This document shows, piece by piece, positions 18,843-25,887 of a stretch of DNA of 64,000 bases. Under the pieces are notes generated by a model. The model was not told where the DNA came from, ran no database searches, and saw only the letters and a program-made list of their open reading frames with translations. Source of the stretch: Escherichia phage vB_EcoM_SA21RB; sequence record OL960580; one strand, 5' to 3'. The first letter of the stretch is position 1. Each line of letters starts with the position of its first letter. Both the position numbers and the translations under genes were made by a program.

Positions 18843-19157
18843 CTAAAAGAAACTTCTTTCACAATTTTTTCCACTGAACCATGCGCTCACTGCTTTCTTA
18901 GTCTCAGGAGCAGTGTTATCCATAAACCATTCAAAGGCAGCCTTTTTATGATTCTGGAGGGCTTCTCGGGCTTTAATCTGCTCACGGTCTATTAACACTA
19001 ACATATGAGCCTTTCTTGTCACCAAGGGCTTCTTATGATTCTTGGAGTATTCCCAGTCATTTGTCCAACGCATTGTCGTTGCGAACTGATGAACCGCGTC
19101 TTTAATTTTAGTTTCGTAAATTTCACGAGCCTTTGAGTATAACATCATTACCTCCAT
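18843..19157 (-). CDS. hypothetical protein
   Basis: 104-aa ORF. Confidence 0.45.
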   Translation of the reverse strand: MEVMMLYSKAREIYETKIKDAVHQFATTMRWTNDWEYSKNHKKPLVTRKAHMLVLIDREQIKAREALQNHKKAAFEWFMDNTAPETKKAVSAWFSGKNCERSFF

Positions 19158-19246
19158 TTACCAGTTTAATTCTAGTCATCTTTTTAATGGCAGTCCATAT
19201 AATCTATTTCTGAACTGCCTTTTTATCTTAGAAGGCCTCTTATGAA

Positions 19247-20215
19247 TTATTTCAGAAGAGTAACCTCAGCGATTTCTTCCCAACCGTTTTTGTCGGTCAT
19301 AATAAAGTCAGCAAGATAAAGAGCAGTACGCAGTGAAACATTGCGTAAACGATTAACATTGACTTTCATCCATGATAATGCTTTATAAGTTTCTTCATCA
19401 GAAAGACCGCGCTTTTGCATCATGTCAGTTGAAAGAATAACATCTTCAACCCTAACCATAATTTCTTCATTAGTGTGAACACCCAAATCCAAATAAACTG
19501 AGCGGGACACTAATGCTTGTAAATGTGGAGCAAGTTTAGTACCACGGTCTAATTCGCGGTCAATGTCAACGTTTGTGATAAAAACAATCGTTCCTTTAAA
19601 TTCAAACTCGCGCTCAATGCCTTTTTCTTCTAAGTAAGAAGATGCAGTGCTCCAGCAGACTTTACGGGTCTCTCCAGTGTCCAGAGCAGCTTTCAGAAGA
19701 TTAAGAATGTCCATATCAGAGAAAACATCCACATCATCAATCAAAAGGACAGAATTCTCTTCACGATTATTCCAAAGTTGTTCATAAAGACCGATACCGG
19801 AGATTTTACCGTTAATGCTTTTATATTCAATGTATCCATTATCATTTGCTTTATTTAAAGCTTTATCTAAAGAATACGTTTTACCAATACCCGCCGCACC
19901 AGAGATAATTAATGAACGAATGTTTCCGTTAATAATACCATTCGTCATCATTCCCATAACATTAAATCTTTTATTAATGCGGGTTTTCATATCTTCATAC
20001 GATTCTTTAACTTCTTCAACTTTTACACCATCATATGAAATGTCTGATTTGTAAACCCAAACACCACGACGTTTACCGTCAATTTCAACAAAAACTTTAC
20101 CATCTCCTTGTGCATCTACCGGAGCATTATCTGGGAACCATTCACCTAAGAGCTCAAAAGTTCCAGAGATTTCTTTACCGAAGTAGATACCCTTATTGAT
20201 AGTTACAGTTTTCAT
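19247..20215 (-). CDS. P-loop (AAA-like) ATPase
   Basis: 322 aa; Walker A GAAGIGKT, Walker B LLIDDVD, sensor-1-like VFITN. Confidence 0.65.
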   Translation of the reverse strand: MKTVTINKGIYFGKEISGTFELLGEWFPDNAPVDAQGDGKVFVEIDGKRRGVWVYKSDISYDGVKVEEVKESYEDMKTRINKRFNVMGMMTNGIINGNIRSLIISGAAGIGKTYSLDKALNKANDNGYIEYKSINGKISGIGLYEQLWNNREENSVLLIDDVDVFSDMDILNLLKAALDTGETRKVCWSTASSYLEEKGIEREFEFKGTIVFITNVDIDRELDRGTKLAPHLQALVSRSVYLDLGVHTNEEIMVRVEDVILSTDMMQKRGLSDEETYKALSWMKVNVNRLRNVSLRTALYLADFIMTDKNGWEEIAEVTLLK

Positions 20216-20272
20216 TTTATTCTCCTTTGATTTGATAGGACTACTATAACATAGTCCTATCAGTTTGTATAC

Positions 20273-20473
20273 TTATTTTGACATTTCTTCGATGTCACGA
20301 CGATACCCGTCACGAACTTCACGAAGAGCTTCAAGGCCACACATAGGCTCGATACCAGTAATGTGAACTTGATTAATCTGATACTCTACATCTTCTAACT
20401 GAGTGAAAACATAACGACGTTCAGCTGCGCACCCAGATTTAGCTTTACCGAAACGTTTATTCAAAGTAGTCAT
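20273..20473 (-). CDS. hypothetical small protein
   Basis: 66-aa ORF between the ATPase and the nucleotidyltransferase-like gene. Confidence 0.4.
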   Translation of the reverse strand: MTTLNKRFGKAKSGCAAERRYVFTQLEDVEYQINQVHITGIEPMCGLEALREVRDGYRRDIEEMSK

Positions 20474-20504
20474 TTTGTATCTCCAATTTACTCATTTGTT
20501 TTGA

Positions 20505-20543
20505 TAGTTGTATAGTACCATAAAGCTTTATGCTTGTAAACAG
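20505..20543 (-). promoter_or_regulatory. T4 early promoter
   Basis: minus strand GTTTACAAG ... TGGTACTATAC, immediately downstream of the NTase terminator. Confidence 0.6.
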
Positions 20544-20564
20544 TTTTGTGAAAAATTTTTGAAA

Positions 20565-20590
20565 TAAAAAAAGGGAGCCCGAAGGCTCCC
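20565..20590 (-). terminator. rho-independent terminator after the NTase-like gene
   Basis: minus strand GGGAGCCTTCGGGCTCCC followed by TTTTTTT. Confidence 0.7.
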
Positions 20591-20592
20591 TA

Positions 20593-21606
20593 TCATTTAT
20601 AATAACTTCGGTGGTTTTCAAGATAGACCTTCTCAAGGAAGTCATCCCAGAAACCCATGTCCACTTTTTGCTGCATACCGTTCTTAGAAGCTTCAGTAGA
20701 TGCTGCTTCTACTTGATCGACCACATCTTCCAAAAACTCTTGAACTGTTTTAAATGGATGTTTACCCAACTTCACGTCGAGAATAAATGGAGCATCTTGG
20801 AGTGGATAAACCAAGTCACCAGTTTTGTAAATTTCCAATAGTTGAAGTCCACCACGACAAGCATGGCTCAGAGCTTTCCAGTCAATGCCTTCATTGGCTT
20901 CGGCCTTACGAGCACGTTCACCGTATTCAGCATCTAATTTGTTCAGTGACTGTTTAAGCTCAATAAGAGAAAGAGTTGTCTGATATTTACGACCCAACAC
21001 AGTGTAGAACGTTTGTGGGCCTGTTTTCTCATGATTATGGAACACCCATTCACAGAATTCGTTTTCTGGAAGACGATGCTTAATATCTTCAACTTTAGTG
21101 CGACGTTGCTTAATGGAACCGTCTTCTTGGTAATCAACCCATTGCTCAGGGATTTGATTAACTACTTTCAATACATCACGTAATGCAGCCAAACGAGAAC
21201 CCTTGACACCGTATTTAGAAGCTTGCTTGCGAACATATCCTAAATAGGATTTCATGTTAGTCGTATAAAAACGAGAACGATTGTCTTGAATAAACTTCCA
21301 CACATCAGGCAAATCAGATTTAACCACTAGTTCAGGTGGAGTGTGAAGCATATCCAATGCTACAGTTTCACCATCTGCTGCTAATTTAAAGAAATATTTA
21401 AGACTGTATAGTTCATGGTCAATATCATCTTTAGTGTTTTTAGATGATGTGTTGTTAGTGTTTTTACTCATGTGTTCTTTGACATTTCCGATAAGAATAT
21501 CGCGAGCAGGAGGAACAAAGATTTCTTTAAAATCTACATCAGATTCTGGAGTAGAAGTTCCATAAAGATGACTACCAAAATAGCTTTTCATTACTGTTTT
21601 CATCAT
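20593..21606 (-). CDS. nucleotidyltransferase-fold protein (minimal-NTase-like N-terminus)
   Basis: 337 aa; N-terminal GSHLYGTSTPESDVDF fits the pol-beta-superfamily GS...[DE]h[DE]h signature; followed by a hairpin terminator. Confidence 0.55.
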   Translation of the reverse strand: MMKTVMKSYFGSHLYGTSTPESDVDFKEIFVPPARDILIGNVKEHMSKNTNNTSSKNTKDDIDHELYSLKYFFKLAADGETVALDMLHTPPELVVKSDLPDVWKFIQDNRSRFYTTNMKSYLGYVRKQASKYGVKGSRLAALRDVLKVVNQIPEQWVDYQEDGSIKQRRTKVEDIKHRLPENEFCEWVFHNHEKTGPQTFYTVLGRKYQTTLSLIELKQSLNKLDAEYGERARKAEANEGIDWKALSHACRGGLQLLEIYKTGDLVYPLQDAPFILDVKLGKHPFKTVQEFLEDVVDQVEAASTEASKNGMQQKVDMGFWDDFLEKVYLENHRSYYK

Positions 21607-22064
21607 TCAGCCTTATATTCAATAACAGGACATACTTTAGCTTTACGAGCTTTTAAAAATTCGACGATAATCGATTTCTTGGGTTGAATAGGAGGTAAAC
21701 CTTTATACGCTCTATCAATATTTTCTACGTGTAAAGCATAATCCTTTTTCCATTTATAATCTTTATATTTTTCACGCAAATGTGCAGGAATAACAAATGA
21801 ACCGATAATAAGTAAAACAACCAAAAGTGCAAGTATAAATGCCGATGGAAGAAGAGTCCATAAACTACCGAAAATAAGCCAACGTTGTAGGCTTTCTGCA
21901 CAAATAATTGTTAACCCTACGAGTATAGCACACCCAAAAATAGAAACGAAAAATGTAGGAATGGCAATAGACCAAAAATATGCGCATAATGTCTTAGGTC
22001 GTTGCCATTCATCGTTAAACAATTTGAATAATTTATAGTGCCAAGAGTTTTCATTAATAATCAT
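21603..22064 (-). CDS. membrane protein (multiple hydrophobic segments)
   Basis: 153 aa; at least three hydrophobic helices. Confidence 0.5.
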   Translation of the reverse strand: MIINENSWHYKLFKLFNDEWQRPKTLCAYFWSIAIPTFFVSIFGCAILVGLTIICAESLQRWLIFGSLWTLLPSAFILALLVVLLIIGSFVIPAHLREKYKDYKWKKDYALHVENIDRAYKGLPPIQPKKSIIVEFLKARKAKVCPVIEYKAE

Positions 22065-22066
22065 AA

Positions 22067-22588
22067 TTATCCTTTCATTGAAGGCGTAACGGTTGTTAAA
22101 TACTTAATCATAGCTTCAGCTTCTGATTTTGATAATGAAATTTCTCCATTGTTTTGACGAATAGAAATAAAATCCGGATGACGGTCACCACCAGCTTTTA
22201 AAACACACATATAAGTATCAACTTCACCTTCAATATTTGAAATGATTGAAGCAGTTCCACATGAATGTGGTTTTTGATAAATCAATGCAGCTTTTCTTCC
22301 ACCGTTTGACTGTTCATAGGCTTTTAATACATCAAGCAAATCAGTTCTTTTATCAATAGCTAAAATGTTATTTTCATCCTCAATGTTAAATCCTTCGGAT
22401 ACTTCATAAAGTGTTACCCATAAATCACCGATGTCAATAACAGCATTTACGCTTCCACGGCTTTCAAGAGTATGACAAATTTTCTTGATTTCATCATAAC
22501 TCATTTTAATAATATCATCTCCTTGACTAAGGAAGATGTCATTTTTAAATTCAACACGAATTAAACCACTTTCACTTGAAATAAACAT
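22067..22588 (-). CDS. hypothetical protein (paralog of 22595-23152)
   Basis: 173 aa; C-terminal SKSEAEAMIKYLTTVTPSM similar to neighbour NKDEAIALKTYLDSVIPTM. Confidence 0.5.
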   Translation of the reverse strand: MFISSESGLIRVEFKNDIFLSQGDDIIKMSYDEIKKICHTLESRGSVNAVIDIGDLWVTLYEVSEGFNIEDENNILAIDKRTDLLDVLKAYEQSNGGRKAALIYQKPHSCGTASIISNIEGEVDTYMCVLKAGGDRHPDFISIRQNNGEISLSKSEAEAMIKYLTTVTPSMKG

Positions 22589-22594
22589 ATTTCC

Positions 22595-23152
22595 TCACTT
22601 TGAAATCATAGTTGGAATAACAGAATCAAGATAAGTCTTTAGTGCAATAGCTTCGTCTTTGTTTAATGTAATGATATGTGATCGAAAATCGTCAATTTGA
22701 CGAATAGATACTACATCTCCCTCTTCATAGCATTTTGACACATTTAAAATAGTTTCATCATTCTGATTACAGGAGTTAGTAATAATAGCATTACATTTTT
22801 TAAACCATTTTAAATTATGTTTTCTTTTAGTAGAATCATAAAAATATTTAATGTTAGTTATAAAATTATCCCAATTATTAATTGATAAGCACATTGACTC
22901 GCTTTTAATATTAAATCCTGGGCATGAAGAATAAAAATGAATTTTATGCTCATCATTAATGCTTACAATTTTATCAGTGTAAGCATATTCAATTTGGGTT
23001 AAACGAACAATTTCACTAGGCGTAAAATATAACATATCATCTTCTTGCGTCAAACGATACATGTTATTTACTTTTTCGATCGCTAATTCACCAAAAAGCA
23101 CACTATCTTCTAATACTAATCGTTTCATATTGATTCTCTTCGACTCACTCAC
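22595..23152 (-). CDS. hypothetical protein (paralog of 22067-22588)
   Basis: 185 aa; shared C-terminal motif with neighbour. Confidence 0.5.
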   Translation of the reverse strand: MSESKRINMKRLVLEDSVLFGELAIEKVNNMYRLTQEDDMLYFTPSEIVRLTQIEYAYTDKIVSINDEHKIHFYSSCPGFNIKSESMCLSINNWDNFITNIKYFYDSTKRKHNLKWFKKCNAIITNSCNQNDETILNVSKCYEEGDVVSIRQIDDFRSHIITLNKDEAIALKTYLDSVIPTMISK

Positions 23153-23282
23153 AATTACATACTCCTTTGAATAATATCAATAATGTTGTTCACCAGATTA
23201 TAAGTAAACAATGGGTAATTATATTGAATCATCACATACACAACAAACAAAACTTTCATTCTCTTCTCCTTGGCAGTTGGCA

Positions 23283-23319
23283 AGATTACTATACCATAAC
23301 CTTGCCAACTTGTAAACCA
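23283..23319 (-). promoter_or_regulatory. T4 early promoter
   Basis: minus strand GTTTACAAG ... TGGTATAGTAAT. Confidence 0.55.
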
Positions 23320-23482
23320 TTAAATGACGTTTTCGATAAAATTCTGAAGCTTTGTATGAGCATCAACCATGATTTTCATTTCTTCTTTGGCGAAAGCTGT
23401 ACCTCTTTCCCGAGAAGAACATTCATAGTCAGAAACTGCATTAGCATATTCTTCAATTAGCTTCATTAAAAACATCTGCTTT

Positions 23483-23677
23483 TCAGTTTTCATTATTCCA
23501 CCTAATCATTTCAAGATATTGAACTAACTTAGCTTTGGATTTATCCAAATCCTTTTTAGCTGCTTCTATACCGTCGTATGAATATCCTTCACAATGCTCA
23601 ACTGCTAATTGATATGAATCTATTTCAATATCACGTGCTAATTTAATGATTTTTTCAAACTGTTCGCGTGTTAGCAT
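23483..23677 (-). CDS. hypothetical small protein
   Basis: 64-aa ORF. Confidence 0.4.
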   Translation of the reverse strand: MLTREQFEKIIKLARDIEIDSYQLAVEHCEGYSYDGIEAAKKDLDKSKAKLVQYLEMIRWNNEN

Positions 23678-23679
23678 AC

Positions 23680-23919
23680 TTAAACTCTCGTATTATGATC
23701 GATAATTTCATCAAGAAACATATCTAACGCTTCTAAAGCATTATCAACTTTAGCTTCAAGTTCATCAATACCTTTATTTGCAATGCCTGACGAAAACCAA
23801 GCAAAGTCACTAAGTTCCTCATCTGCTTTACGAATTAAAGCTACCAATTCTTTAATCTTATCAGCTTGTTCGATACTAATCATTATTCCACCACATATGA
23901 AAGAGAGAATATTGCACAC
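23680..23919 (-). CDS. hypothetical small acidic protein
   Basis: 79-aa ORF. Confidence 0.4.
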
Positions 23920-24071
23920 GCCATATGAGTTGCAACTTCATCACACATATTATAACGTTTCTTAAGAAGTTCTACAAGTTCTTCACTAGTAACTTCATCC
24001 ATGTCGACGAAAAAATCACCATTAATGATGACGTAGATATTTCCTTCTTGATTGAGTGCTTCAATTTTCAT
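23883..24071 (-). CDS. hypothetical small protein
   Basis: track ORF trimmed to ATG 24071 (MKIEALNQ...) because an early promoter -10 lies inside the longer ORF. Confidence 0.4.
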
Positions 24072-24093
24072 GATGTTCTCCTCTTTATCCGAT

Positions 24094-24130
24094 AGTTGTA
24101 TAGTACCACAGCTCAAACGGAAAGTAAACC
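24094..24130 (-). promoter_or_regulatory. T4 early promoter
   Basis: minus strand GTTTAC ... TGGTACTATAC. Confidence 0.6.
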
Positions 24131-24138
24131 GGTAAAAT

Positions 24139-24160
24139 GAAAAAAGTCTCCCGAAGGAGA
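24139..24160 (-). terminator. rho-independent terminator
   Basis: minus strand GTCTCCTTCGGGAGAC followed by TTTTTT. Confidence 0.65.
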
Positions 24161-24166
24161 CTAATG

Positions 24167-24553
24167 TTATTCGAGGGAAAGAAGATACTTACTCTGGTAA
24201 AACATCCCAGTAATATCATCTATCGTGCTTTGAATGGCTGGAGGCATTTCTTTATAAATGCTGTTAGATTGGTCTAGTATGCGATCAATCATTTTAATTG
24301 TGTCGGTAGGAAGTTTACTGGCATCTGGAATTGAAGGCGTGTATTTTCTACCAGAATACCCCAAATATTGCTCACCAAATTTATCAATCAAATCTGGCAA
24401 CTCGGAGAAAATAAAATCGTATGCTTTGTGTCTAGCATAACTTTTAGTTTCAAAATGTGCAGAATGAAAATAAGCTTGTGCAGCCATTAATAAACCTAAG
24501 TATTCATCTGCCTTTGAAGGTTTTCCACTTTGTGAAAAGTCGCTGAATTTCAT
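24167..24553 (-). CDS. hypothetical protein
   Basis: 128-aa ORF followed by a hairpin terminator; 4-nt overlap with rI stop. Confidence 0.45.
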
Positions 24554-24843
24554 TCAGTCTCCAATTTAATTTTCATAATTCTAGCGTATGATTGTGCCAT
24601 CTCCGCGCCTCGCTCTATACATTCAAAATCAGAAGAGCACGGGTCATTTTTATAGGTCGTTCTCATAAAACTATAGAATTGTTCAGACGATTCTACACTT
24701 TTATTTTCAAAAAGTGTATAAACGTGCCTAATACCAGATTCCATAAATTTATCAAAATGAGGATCGACATTCGCTTCAATCGATGGAGATAAAACAAATG
24801 ACAATCCTAGCATGGCAAAAAGTGCCGTTGCTTTTAAGGCCAT
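24550..24843 (-). CDS. rI: lysis inhibition regulator RI (periplasmic antiholin)
   Basis: 97 aa; MALKATALFAMLGLSFVLSPSIEA signal-anchor; near-identical to remembered T4 RI. Confidence 0.88.
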   Translation of the reverse strand: MALKATALFAMLGLSFVLSPSIEANVDPHFDKFMESGIRHVYTLFENKSVESSEQFYSFMRTTYKNDPCSSDFECIERGAEMAQSYARIMKIKLETE

Positions 24844-24855
24844 AAAGGCCTCCTA

Positions 24856-25068
24856 TCATTTTTGTCCTGTATTTACTTTATGCCGATGCACGGCCTTAAC
24901 TTTATCAAGGTATTTTTCAAAATTTCGCAATCTAGTATAGTCTGCCGGAGATTGGTTGAGTGATACTTCTCGACGCAAAGCTGAAATAACATTTCCAACT
25001 TCCCTACGAATTTCATCTAATTGAAGAACAGTAAGATTGCGAAGTTGCTTTTCAGTTAATTGTAGCAT
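24856..25068 (-). CDS. hypothetical protein between tk and rI
   Basis: 70-aa ORF. Confidence 0.45.
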
Positions 25069-25110
25069 ATATACCCCTTTAGTTAGATAAACCTATTTAT
25101 AACTTTTGCA

Positions 25111-25692
25111 CTAACCGAGCTTTTTAGTTAATTCATTCCAATGTTTTCTACACAAAGAAACATAAATTTCATCACCAATACAGATTTGATTACCTTCTTT
25201 AACTGGTGTTCCATCTTCCATTAATCGAGCTGTCATAATCGCTTTTTTACCACAATGACAAACTGCTTTTAGTTCAATAAGTTTATCTGCAATCGCCAAA
25301 AGTTCTTTAGAACCTTCAAATAATTTTCCAGCGAAATCAGTCCTTAGCCCATAAGCCATAACAGGAACATTATATGTATCAACAATTCGGCTTAATTGAT
25401 GCACTTGTTCAGTTTTTAAAAACTGAGCTTCATCTACAAATACGCAATGAATATCTTTTTGTGCTTCAGCCCATTTATAGAACTCAAAAATATCCATATC
25501 ATCCGTAATAATATTCGCTTCCTGTTTAATTCCAATGCGAGAAACGACTTCACAGACAGAATCGCGAGTATCAATAGCAGGCTTAAGAACTAATACACTC
25601 ATTCCACGTTCTTTATAATTATGTGCAGCAGTCAAAAGAGAAGCAGATTTTCCAGCATTCATTGCTGCATAAGTAAAAATTAAACTCGCCAT
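25111..25692 (-). CDS. tk: thymidine kinase
   Basis: 193 aa; P-loop AAMNAGKS, Walker B FVDEAQF and C-terminal zinc cysteines CHCG...CRKH. Confidence 0.92.
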   Translation of the reverse strand: MASLIFTYAAMNAGKSASLLTAAHNYKERGMSVLVLKPAIDTRDSVCEVVSRIGIKQEANIITDDMDIFEFYKWAEAQKDIHCVFVDEAQFLKTEQVHQLSRIVDTYNVPVMAYGLRTDFAGKLFEGSKELLAIADKLIELKAVCHCGKKAIMTARLMEDGTPVKEGNQICIGDEIYVSLCRKHWNELTKKLG

Positions 25693-25701
25693 ATCACCTT
25701 C

Positions 25702-25887
25702 TTAAAGCGTATTCACATAAGCTATTAATTCGTTTTCTTTCTTATCAAACCGATCAGCAAATTCTTCTTGCTGTTCGGGAGATAGCGGGCCGTATTCATC
25801 ATAAAAGGTGTTTGCTTCTGTATGCTCATCTAGAAGTTCATGGATAAGCTCAAACAATTTATCTTTTTGTTCTTTACTCAGACTCAT
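25702..25887 (-). CDS. hypothetical small acidic protein
   Basis: 61-aa ORF. Confidence 0.4.
   Translation of the reverse strand: MSLSKEQKDKLFELIHELLDEHTEANTFYDEYGPLSPEQQEEFADRFDKKENELIAYVNTL

Follow-up and report, generated by a model that had tools for sequence, protein, structure and literature searches.

The genes described here lie on the minus strand of a 64,000-nucleotide stretch of Escherichia phage vB_EcoM_SA21RB (sequence record OL960580), referred to below as the window, whose numbering is used throughout. Hundreds of records, among them those of Shigella phage Shfl2, T2 and AR1, are 97–98% identical to the window between positions 21000 and 24600. On this similarity we assign the source phage to the T4-like genus Tequatrovirus, in agreement with an earlier note on this DNA that had placed the genes in the nrdC–rI region of a T-even phage. 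Read along the minus strand, the gene order is tk (25111–25692), rI.1, rI, rI.-1, the small genes mobD.5 to mobD.2a, mobD.2, B, A, M, nrdC.11 and nrdC.10, where A and B are the two open reading frames that the earlier note had picked out as a tandem pair of paralogues of similar length, and M is the gene that follows them. ORF B (22595–23152, minus strand) encodes a protein of 185 residues (pI 5.8) from a GTG start codon preceded by AAGGAG; if translation began instead at the in-frame ATG of codon 9, the product would have 177 residues. ORF A (22067–22588, minus strand) starts with ATG and encodes 173 residues (pI 4.8).

Upstream of B is a mobD.2-like ORF (23155–23259, minus strand), encoding a hydrophobic protein of 34 residues, with AAGGAG before its ATG; its position and length equal those of T4 mobD.2, and it is the first gene of the operon. 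M (21603–22064, minus strand) starts 2 nt past the stop codon of A and encodes a 153-residue membrane protein of PHROG 944. The last gene of the operon, nrdC.11 (20593–21606, minus strand), encodes a nucleotidyltransferase of the RlaP family, within the Pol-β superfamily (Pfam RlaP, E = 2.5e-11; PHROG 388). The junctions are tight, with 6 nt between B and A, 2 nt between A and M, and an overlap of M and nrdC.11 in ATGA. Just upstream of mobD.2 we identified a promoter-like site of the sigma-70 or T4-early type (23288–23316, minus strand; TTTACA, a 17 nt spacer, TATAGT and an extended −10 TG), which with 10 of 12 matches has the best promoter-like score within 19000–25200 and occupies the position of the T4 early promoter Pe57.9. 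In T4, the early promoters Pe57954 and Pe57.9 lie just upstream of mobD.2 and mobD.1, and both are repressed by DksA (PMC6024815). Directly after nrdC.11 is a strong intrinsic-terminator-like hairpin (20572–20591, minus strand) with an 8 bp stem, six GC pairs and a T-run, and a second terminator lies upstream, after rI.-1 (24162–24145). Taken together, the promoter and terminator sites, the tight junctions and the match with the T4 early promoters define an early operon that runs from the promoter through mobD.2, B, A, M and nrdC.11 to the terminator.

A and B, both members of the MobD.1/y05I family, arose by an ancient tandem duplication. BLASTP aligned residues 8–171 of A with residues 21–182 of B at 26% identity and 48% positives (E = 7e-11). 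To this we added Smith–Waterman scores judged against 2000 shuffles, where the full-length comparison gave z = 15.1 and none of the 2000 shuffles reached the observed score. The earlier note had based the pairing on the likeness of the two protein ends, and the C-terminal peptides that it quoted are present in both ORFs (z = 8.3 for the last 25 residues). Pairwise alignment extends the similarity beyond the C-terminal 20 residues: without the last 25 residues the comparison still gave z = 8.9 and a BLASTP E value of 6e-07, and the N-terminal domains by themselves gave z = 7.8. Once the final 25 residues are taken away, the C-domain by itself falls short of significance (z = 1.6). The proposed paralogy therefore holds as full-length homology. 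At the DNA level, only two in-register remnants of 14–22 nt connect the genes (22153–22174 with 22696–22717, and 22512–22525 with 23034–23047), and both sit over conserved motifs. With just these remnants left, a recent DNA-level duplication is ruled out, and the duplication must be old.

Both proteins carry the two Pfam domains of the family. PF24449 (T4_y05I_N) matches residues 2–95 of A (113.7 bits, E = 7e-33) and residues 12–108 of B (141.8 bits, E = 1.2e-41), while PF24448 (T4_y05I_C) matches residues 102–171 of A (80.2 bits) and residues 113–182 of B (74.8 bits). The Pfam gathering scores are 24.9 bits for PF24449 and 27 bits for PF24448, which A and B exceed three- to five-fold. PHROG 1502, a family of unknown function, was matched over the full length by A (E = 1.9e-66) and B (E = 9.1e-78), and a search of NCBIfam gave no match for either. 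The annotations ‘DUF3846’ and ‘DUF2283’, found in one GenBank record, were absent from the Pfam results at E ≤ 1. Pfam describes PF24449 and PF24448 as ‘y05I-like putative transcription factor’, and the T4 member, MobD.1 (UniProt Y05I_BPT4), is entered as an ‘uncharacterized 21.1 kDa protein in mobD-rI intergenic region’. Pfam and PHROGs thus already cover the family with both of its domains and take in A as well as B, and B is T4 mobD.1. Placing two hypothetical genes in a catalogued family is in itself a modest result. The earlier note listed the pair as having no known function, and the searchable literature documents none: we found no functional study of mobD.1, y05I, mobD, nrdC.11, RlaP or the Pfam accessions, and no publication on the tandem pair, on the displacement of A and M by mobD or on the junction between y05I_C and M genes.

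The family has a narrow range. When 1.84 billion cluster representatives were searched exhaustively with HMMER, 22 clusters matched at E ≤ 1e-3. Two of these, both long (P0023 and P0025), were discarded as spurious, low-complexity repeat proteins, and at this threshold none of the others was a relative from outside the T4-like phages. Judged from this search, y05I proteins occur only in T4-like phages of enterobacteria. About 430 phage records carry A at 80% identity or more, and B-type genes, counting those with a divergent PhiZZ6-type allele, are present in about 490 Tequatrovirus-type records. Mosigvirus, Gaprivervirus and Dhakavirus have more distant homologues. Free proteins of 74–87 residues that comprise the C-domain alone exist beside the full-length members. 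These stand-alone y05I_C mini-proteins (PHROG 7763 and 10804) occur in Gelderlandvirus and in T4-like phages of Klebsiella, Serratia and Yersinia, with up to three copies per genome; Gelderlandvirus SEA1 has three in the rI–nrdC.11 interval. In common with A and B they have the C-terminal module, with the motif TKxEAxALxxYLNSVIPTM, but the N-terminal domain is missing; like A, they lie directly upstream of an M-family gene.

Across the family, six residues are invariant (L114, A122, T134, E167, Y174 and L175, in B numbering) and a further six are nearly so (D146, Q152, K165, V178, P180 and M182), with the protein ending in a helix of the motif (T/S)KxEAxxLxxYLxxV(I/T)P(T/S)M. The AlphaFold2 model of B, built from an alignment of 29 sequences, is confident (pLDDT 83.5) and comprises three modules, each a four- or five-stranded β-meander followed by a helix; the model of A, from six sequences, is unusable (pLDDT 44). 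Comparison by hhalign of the first module of B (sub-repeat 1) with the C-domain gave a probability of 79% (E = 1.7e-5), which suggests that the two modules are related. A further candidate relative is DUF7189 (PF23819), a family of small proteins encoded upstream of the MobD.1 homologue in Gaprivervirus and Dhakavirus, which has weak reciprocal profile matches with sub-repeat 1 of y05I_N and with y05I_C, all below the gathering scores. These matches suggest that DUF7189, y05I_N sub-repeat 1 and y05I_C may be forms of one common β-hairpin-plus-helix unit.

The structure prediction that the earlier note had proposed leads to no known fold. Foldseek found nothing in the PDB for the B model at E < 1e-3, with TM-scores of at most 0.35, and we regard the top matches (Ctf4, the Pob3/Rtt106 tandem PH domains, a sliding clamp and a dioxygenase) as topological noise. 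Against BFVD, members of the family alone were returned. Searches of PDB sequences with A, B, the family profile and the M profile gave nothing below an E value of about 1, and A and B show no sign of a catalytic fold. From these features and their composition we infer that A and B are soluble, acidic, non-catalytic binding proteins.

Comparison with T4 accounts for the two genes separately. T4 MobD.1 is 97.7% identical to B over 176 residues and both genes lie downstream of mobD.2, so by identity and synteny we assign B as the orthologue of MobD.1. MobD.1 and A are 25.7% identical; A is thus a paralogue and not an orthologue, although the two have the two-domain architecture and the invariant residues in common. 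The A subfamily is separate from MobD.1 and more uniform (90–99% identity within Tequatrovirus), and it is missing in T4. There, a gene for an HNH homing endonuclease, mobD, lies between mobD.1 and nrdC.11 (PMC2988022). This free-standing endonuclease gene fills the exact interval that A and M occupy in the window, and it is unrelated in sequence: it is the agent of the loss of A and not a relative. In a nucleotide alignment, T4 matches the window through the Shine–Dalgarno sequence and first six codons of A (GAGGAAATATGTTTATTTCAAGTG), then diverges into mobD, and the match resumes at the start of nrdC.11. The vestigial start of A followed by mobD indicates that the order B–A–M is ancestral and that T4 lost A and M through the insertion of mobD, leaving an intact MobD.1 and no M gene at the locus. 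This is a clean case of a homing endonuclease displacing resident genes, in which the start of a lost gene is still visible. It also makes T4 atypical, since in most Tequatrovirus genomes B is accompanied by A and M, and in T4 by mobD; with A and M missing, T4 genetics is uninformative on their roles.

We next consider how the genes are maintained. Nei–Gojobori comparisons across six to seven Tequatrovirus genomes gave dN/dS values of 0.09–0.25 for A, 0.16–0.55 for B, 0.06–0.47 for M and 0.01–0.10 for nrdC.11. Purifying selection thus acts on A and B, and both are intact, except in T2, where each contains two frameshifts (B: −2 at 23027 and −1 at 22801; A: −1 at 22438 and −2 at 22209) within surrounding DNA that is 98% identical. 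The T4 segment from nrdC.11 to mobD.3 is lost in a viable genome-reduced T4 (PMC9825161). In contigs from at least three samples the A/B pair is replaced by a single hybrid gene directly before M, made up of 129 B-type residues (83% identity) and 50 A-type residues (98%), with the junction inside the C-domain; this natural fusion points to a modular build. The alleles of B form three or more classes (about 98%, 85% and 47–49% identity) and those of M at least two (93–98% and 36% identity), in genomes whose flanks are 98–100% identical, with A at 92–97%. The locus is dispensable and fluid.

M had been described in the earlier note as a polytopic membrane protein, and two long hydrophobic blocks, at about residues 27–56 and 62–95, are seen in the translation. 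These suggest two, possibly three, transmembrane helices. M is basic (pI 9.4). The hydrophobic blocks are conserved, as are a motif at the N-terminus (MIINxNSWH...RPxxLCxYFW) and the basic tail, which ends in ...VEF(L/I)KARKxKVCPxI. With the topology drawn from hydropathy, both ends of M are probably cytoplasmic by the positive-inside rule. T4 NrdC.7 was considered as a paralogue of M and rejected.

The new finding is that y05I_C genes almost always lie directly before an M-family gene, so that M holds a conserved place beside the family and is no chance neighbour. HMMs of the two y05I domains and of M were run over 59 related loci. Among M genes in the rI–nrdC.11 context, 30 of 31 have a y05I_C gene whose end falls within −11 to +28 nt of the start of M (median spacing 9 nt), and this holds across several genera; at the single exception, a degenerate-looking ORF occupies the y05I_C position. 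At the same loci the gap from M to nrdC.11 varies from −34 to 2587 nt, with extra genes inserted in 17 of the 31; on the other side, anything from 565 to 1688 nt separates rI.-1 from the first y05I-like gene. With a near-constant spacing between y05I_C and M and variable gaps on either side, the junction is preserved while both flanks change. In SEA1 the y05I_C–M cassette is present twice with congruent paralogy (40% identity between c2 and c3, 47% between M1 and M2), the two C-domain genes that abut M being each other’s closest relatives, as are the two copies of M.

Several observations bound what this adjacency can mean. All of these phages are related and largely collinear, so the adjacency could in part be inherited gene order. 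The co-occurrence also fails in both directions: the M family is found in 29 more distant T4-like loci with no detectable y05I gene upstream, and T4 has B and no M. The upstream neighbours of M in the distant phages were tried as cryptic y05I_C genes and rejected (hhalign probability of at most 1.6%). Co-variation of B and M alleles was likewise ruled out as a sign of interaction, as the alleles assort independently: of the PhiZZ6-type alleles, that of B is found in 74 records and that of M in 8, and in phage BP32 the PhiZZ6-type M allele stands beside the common B class. A is 95% identical beside either M allele, including the M allele that is only 36% identical. Since A is constant beside divergent M alleles and B and M vary independently, any interaction would have to use the conserved, not the variable, parts of M.

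The reading we favour, with a probability of roughly 0.4, is that A and B are early, acidic, non-catalytic binding proteins whose C-terminal module docks on or regulates M, in an accessory role at the membrane. On this model both proteins would be made early and act by binding other proteins. The C-terminal module, which ends in the near-invariant helix and also exists as a free protein, would be the functional core, and its most likely partner would be M at the inner membrane, with docking on, or regulation of, those cytoplasmic segments of M that are conserved; the gene for y05I_C appears to be translationally coupled to M, and we also count in favour of docking the contrast in charge between acidic A and B (pI 4.8 and 5.8) and basic M (pI 9.4). 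Target specificity would be contributed by the N-terminal domain, which is more variable, so that two paralogues would give two specificities. The module would be a dispensable accessory function rather than a core one, probably in host takeover or in exclusion or counter-defence at the membrane.

A more specific version, which we put forward only tentatively and consider doubtful as a whole, is that y05I_C and M form an unrecognised two-component early module of enterobacterial T4-like phages, in which a soluble adaptor docks on a small inner-membrane protein. Duplicated or swapped adaptors (B, A, the free C-domains and the hybrids) would then retarget M, with a role in host takeover, superinfection exclusion or evasion of a membrane-acting defence. 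If this is correct, T4 lost half of the module to a homing endonuclease, which would explain the lack of study. The near-invariant y05I_C–M junction is a concrete and testable lead on a family that has so far lacked one.

The alternative that survives best, a possible though not a probable one, is that A and B act independently of M, in counter-defence, in binding a host factor or as proteins sensed by a host defence, so that their diversity reflects an arms race and their adjacency to M is inherited. The deep divergence of B alleles within otherwise 97–100% identical genomes fits this, as do the inactivation of both A and B in T2, the replacement of A by mobD in T4, the persistence of T4 B without M, and a family that is lineage-restricted, early and dispensable. 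However, PADLOC matched neither A nor B (M had one non-significant match, E = 0.022), the proteins have no similarity to known anti-defence proteins, and dN/dS is below 1 in all comparisons. Independence from M also leaves the intact y05I_C–M junction and the duplication of the cassette as a unit unexplained.

We consider it unlikely that A and B bind DNA and, as transcription factors, adjust the transcription of early phage genes or of the host, with modules that contact DNA in the manner of AP2 or integrase domains. This reading takes up the Pfam names of PF24449 and PF24448, and it is consistent with the early position of the genes and with the B model, in which several β-strands are followed by a helix in each module. 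Foldseek returned a weak match to a tandem AP2 domain (6sy0, E = 0.068, probability 0.38), but the TM-score is 0.16 and this was the best AP2 match, so that an AP2/integrase-type fold was not found for B. Nor does the wider evidence favour DNA binding: no PDB entry matched at E < 1e-3, with TM-scores of at most 0.35, no DNA-binding Pfam model matched A or B at E ≤ 1, and A (pI 4.8) and B (pI 5.8) are acidic, with C-domains that are no more than neutral (pI 6.9). The T4 segment that contains mobD.1 is deletable, and in the literature we found no support for the label.

Quite unlikely, in our view, is a reading that overlaps the favoured one, in which M is a small toxic or holin-like protein that the cognate y05I proteins inhibit or time, in the manner of an antitoxin or of RIII and holin T. 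RIII is a soluble protein that acts on the cytoplasmic part of holin T, and the two are encoded by lysis-timing genes of T-even phages. The resemblance, as with other T-even pairs of a soluble regulator and a membrane protein, is one of functional analogy, a soluble protein encoded with a small membrane protein; RIII and holin T are not known to have sequence or structural similarity to A, B and M, and they belong to lysis timing whereas A, B and M belong to an early operon. The order of a soluble gene followed by a membrane gene, with overlapping or abutting junctions, favours this reading, as does the position of the locus next to the lysis-inhibition genes rI and rI.-1. However, the match of an M homologue to a holin family is very weak and not significant (E = 0.21), expression is early and not late, and the partners are found apart, with M lacking y05I in distant phages and B lacking M in T4.

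Finally, it is very improbable that one of A and B is a redundant, decaying duplicate without a function of its own: frameshifts in both copies in T2, the absence of A from T4 and the hybrid single-gene forms could be read as decay, but in about 430 records A is intact and at least 90% conserved, dN/dS is low in both (0.09–0.25 for A, 0.16–0.55 for B), and although A and B have diverged down to 26% identity, both have kept the invariant residues of the family.

A natural hybrid of the two paralogs, B (window 22595-23152, minus strand; the ortholog of T4 MobD.1) and its diverged tandem neighbour A (window 22067-22588, minus strand), is carried by Logan metagenome contigs L080-L082. The hybrid gene (L080 2501-3040) encodes 179 aa, comprising an N-terminal part of B type (129 aa, 83% identity) and a C-terminal part of A type (50 aa, 98% identity). 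The junction, at which GATGAAACT of B type is followed by GATACTTAT of A type, lies within the C-domain, the y05I_C module at the C-terminus of both proteins. In front of M, the membrane-protein gene that follows A, the hybrid stands in place of the tandem pair. The hybrid gene is evidence of unequal recombination between A and B.

The start of B is ambiguous (window 23128-23152), with both candidates used in database annotations of its homologs. A GTG at 23152, 9 nt after AAGGAG, gives a protein of 185 aa, and an ATG at 23128 gives one of 177 aa. In the model of B, pLDDT is under 50 for residues 1-6, and residue 11 is where the first strand starts.

Close relatives are extremely mosaic across the region, as a comparison of Citrobacter phage PhiZZ6 (L004 2504-4029) with window 21603-23152 demonstrates. 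Amino-acid identity is 100% for rI.-1, 49% for B, 95% for A, 36% for M and 100% for nrdC.11, and the divergent PhiZZ6 allele of B is similar to the Mosigvirus type (69% identity). Across gene B (window 22500-23250), G+C falls to 0.27, compared with 0.32-0.39 in the neighbouring genes, and the gene in this low-G+C stretch is the one whose allele classes diverge most.

In T4, the homing endonuclease gene mobD occupies the interval of A and M, but directly 3' of mobD.1 (L003 5210-5283, minus strand) T4 still has A's Shine-Dalgarno sequence and its first six codons. The short vestigial ORF that begins there reads into the start of mobD, and this vestige marks the left boundary of the inserted mobD segment.

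The T2 copies (NC_054931, L001 2566-3533) carry two frameshifting deletions in each gene: -2 and -1 in B (window equivalents 23027 and 22801), and -1 and -2 in A (window equivalents 22438 and 22209). Each pair totals -3, and stop codons occur in the middle stretches that are read out of frame. Around them the DNA shows 98% identity and no further indels, and the alignment length is the same across several independent T2 records. The frameshifts may reflect real pseudogenes or a shared stock or sequencing history.

In the M family (window 21603-22064, minus strand; alignment A4), W8, H9, R22, L26, C27 and Y29 are invariant and C145 is nearly so. These residues lie in the two ends of the protein, which are presumed to be cytoplasmic, and the histidine and two cysteines might contribute to a metal site, or to a redox or lipidation site. 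The first of two M copies in Salmonella phage SEA1 (L005 3957-4460) has lost the usual ...KxCPxI ending; its own ending (…FYQLKYLLTLE) resembles the C-terminus of rI.-1, and is apparently a recombination product.

A further paralog family of the same region is Pfam DUF7438, matched by mobD.2a, mobD.3, mobD.4 and tk.1 (E 1e-15 to 3e-19; products of 57-79 aa). The genes lie on the minus strand at window 23320-23493, 23483-23677, 23680-23919 and 25702-25887, three in tandem and the fourth beyond tk, and related contigs have an extra, fourth tandem copy. NrdC.10 (window 19247-20215) weakly matches STAND/AAA NTPase models (nSTAND3, E 1.2e-4; AAA_16, E 1.9e-4). Between nrdC.10 and nrdC.11 (window 20273-20645) there are two small ORFs, and in T2 and some metagenomic relatives this interval holds a gene for a Mod-like ADP-ribosyltransferase instead.
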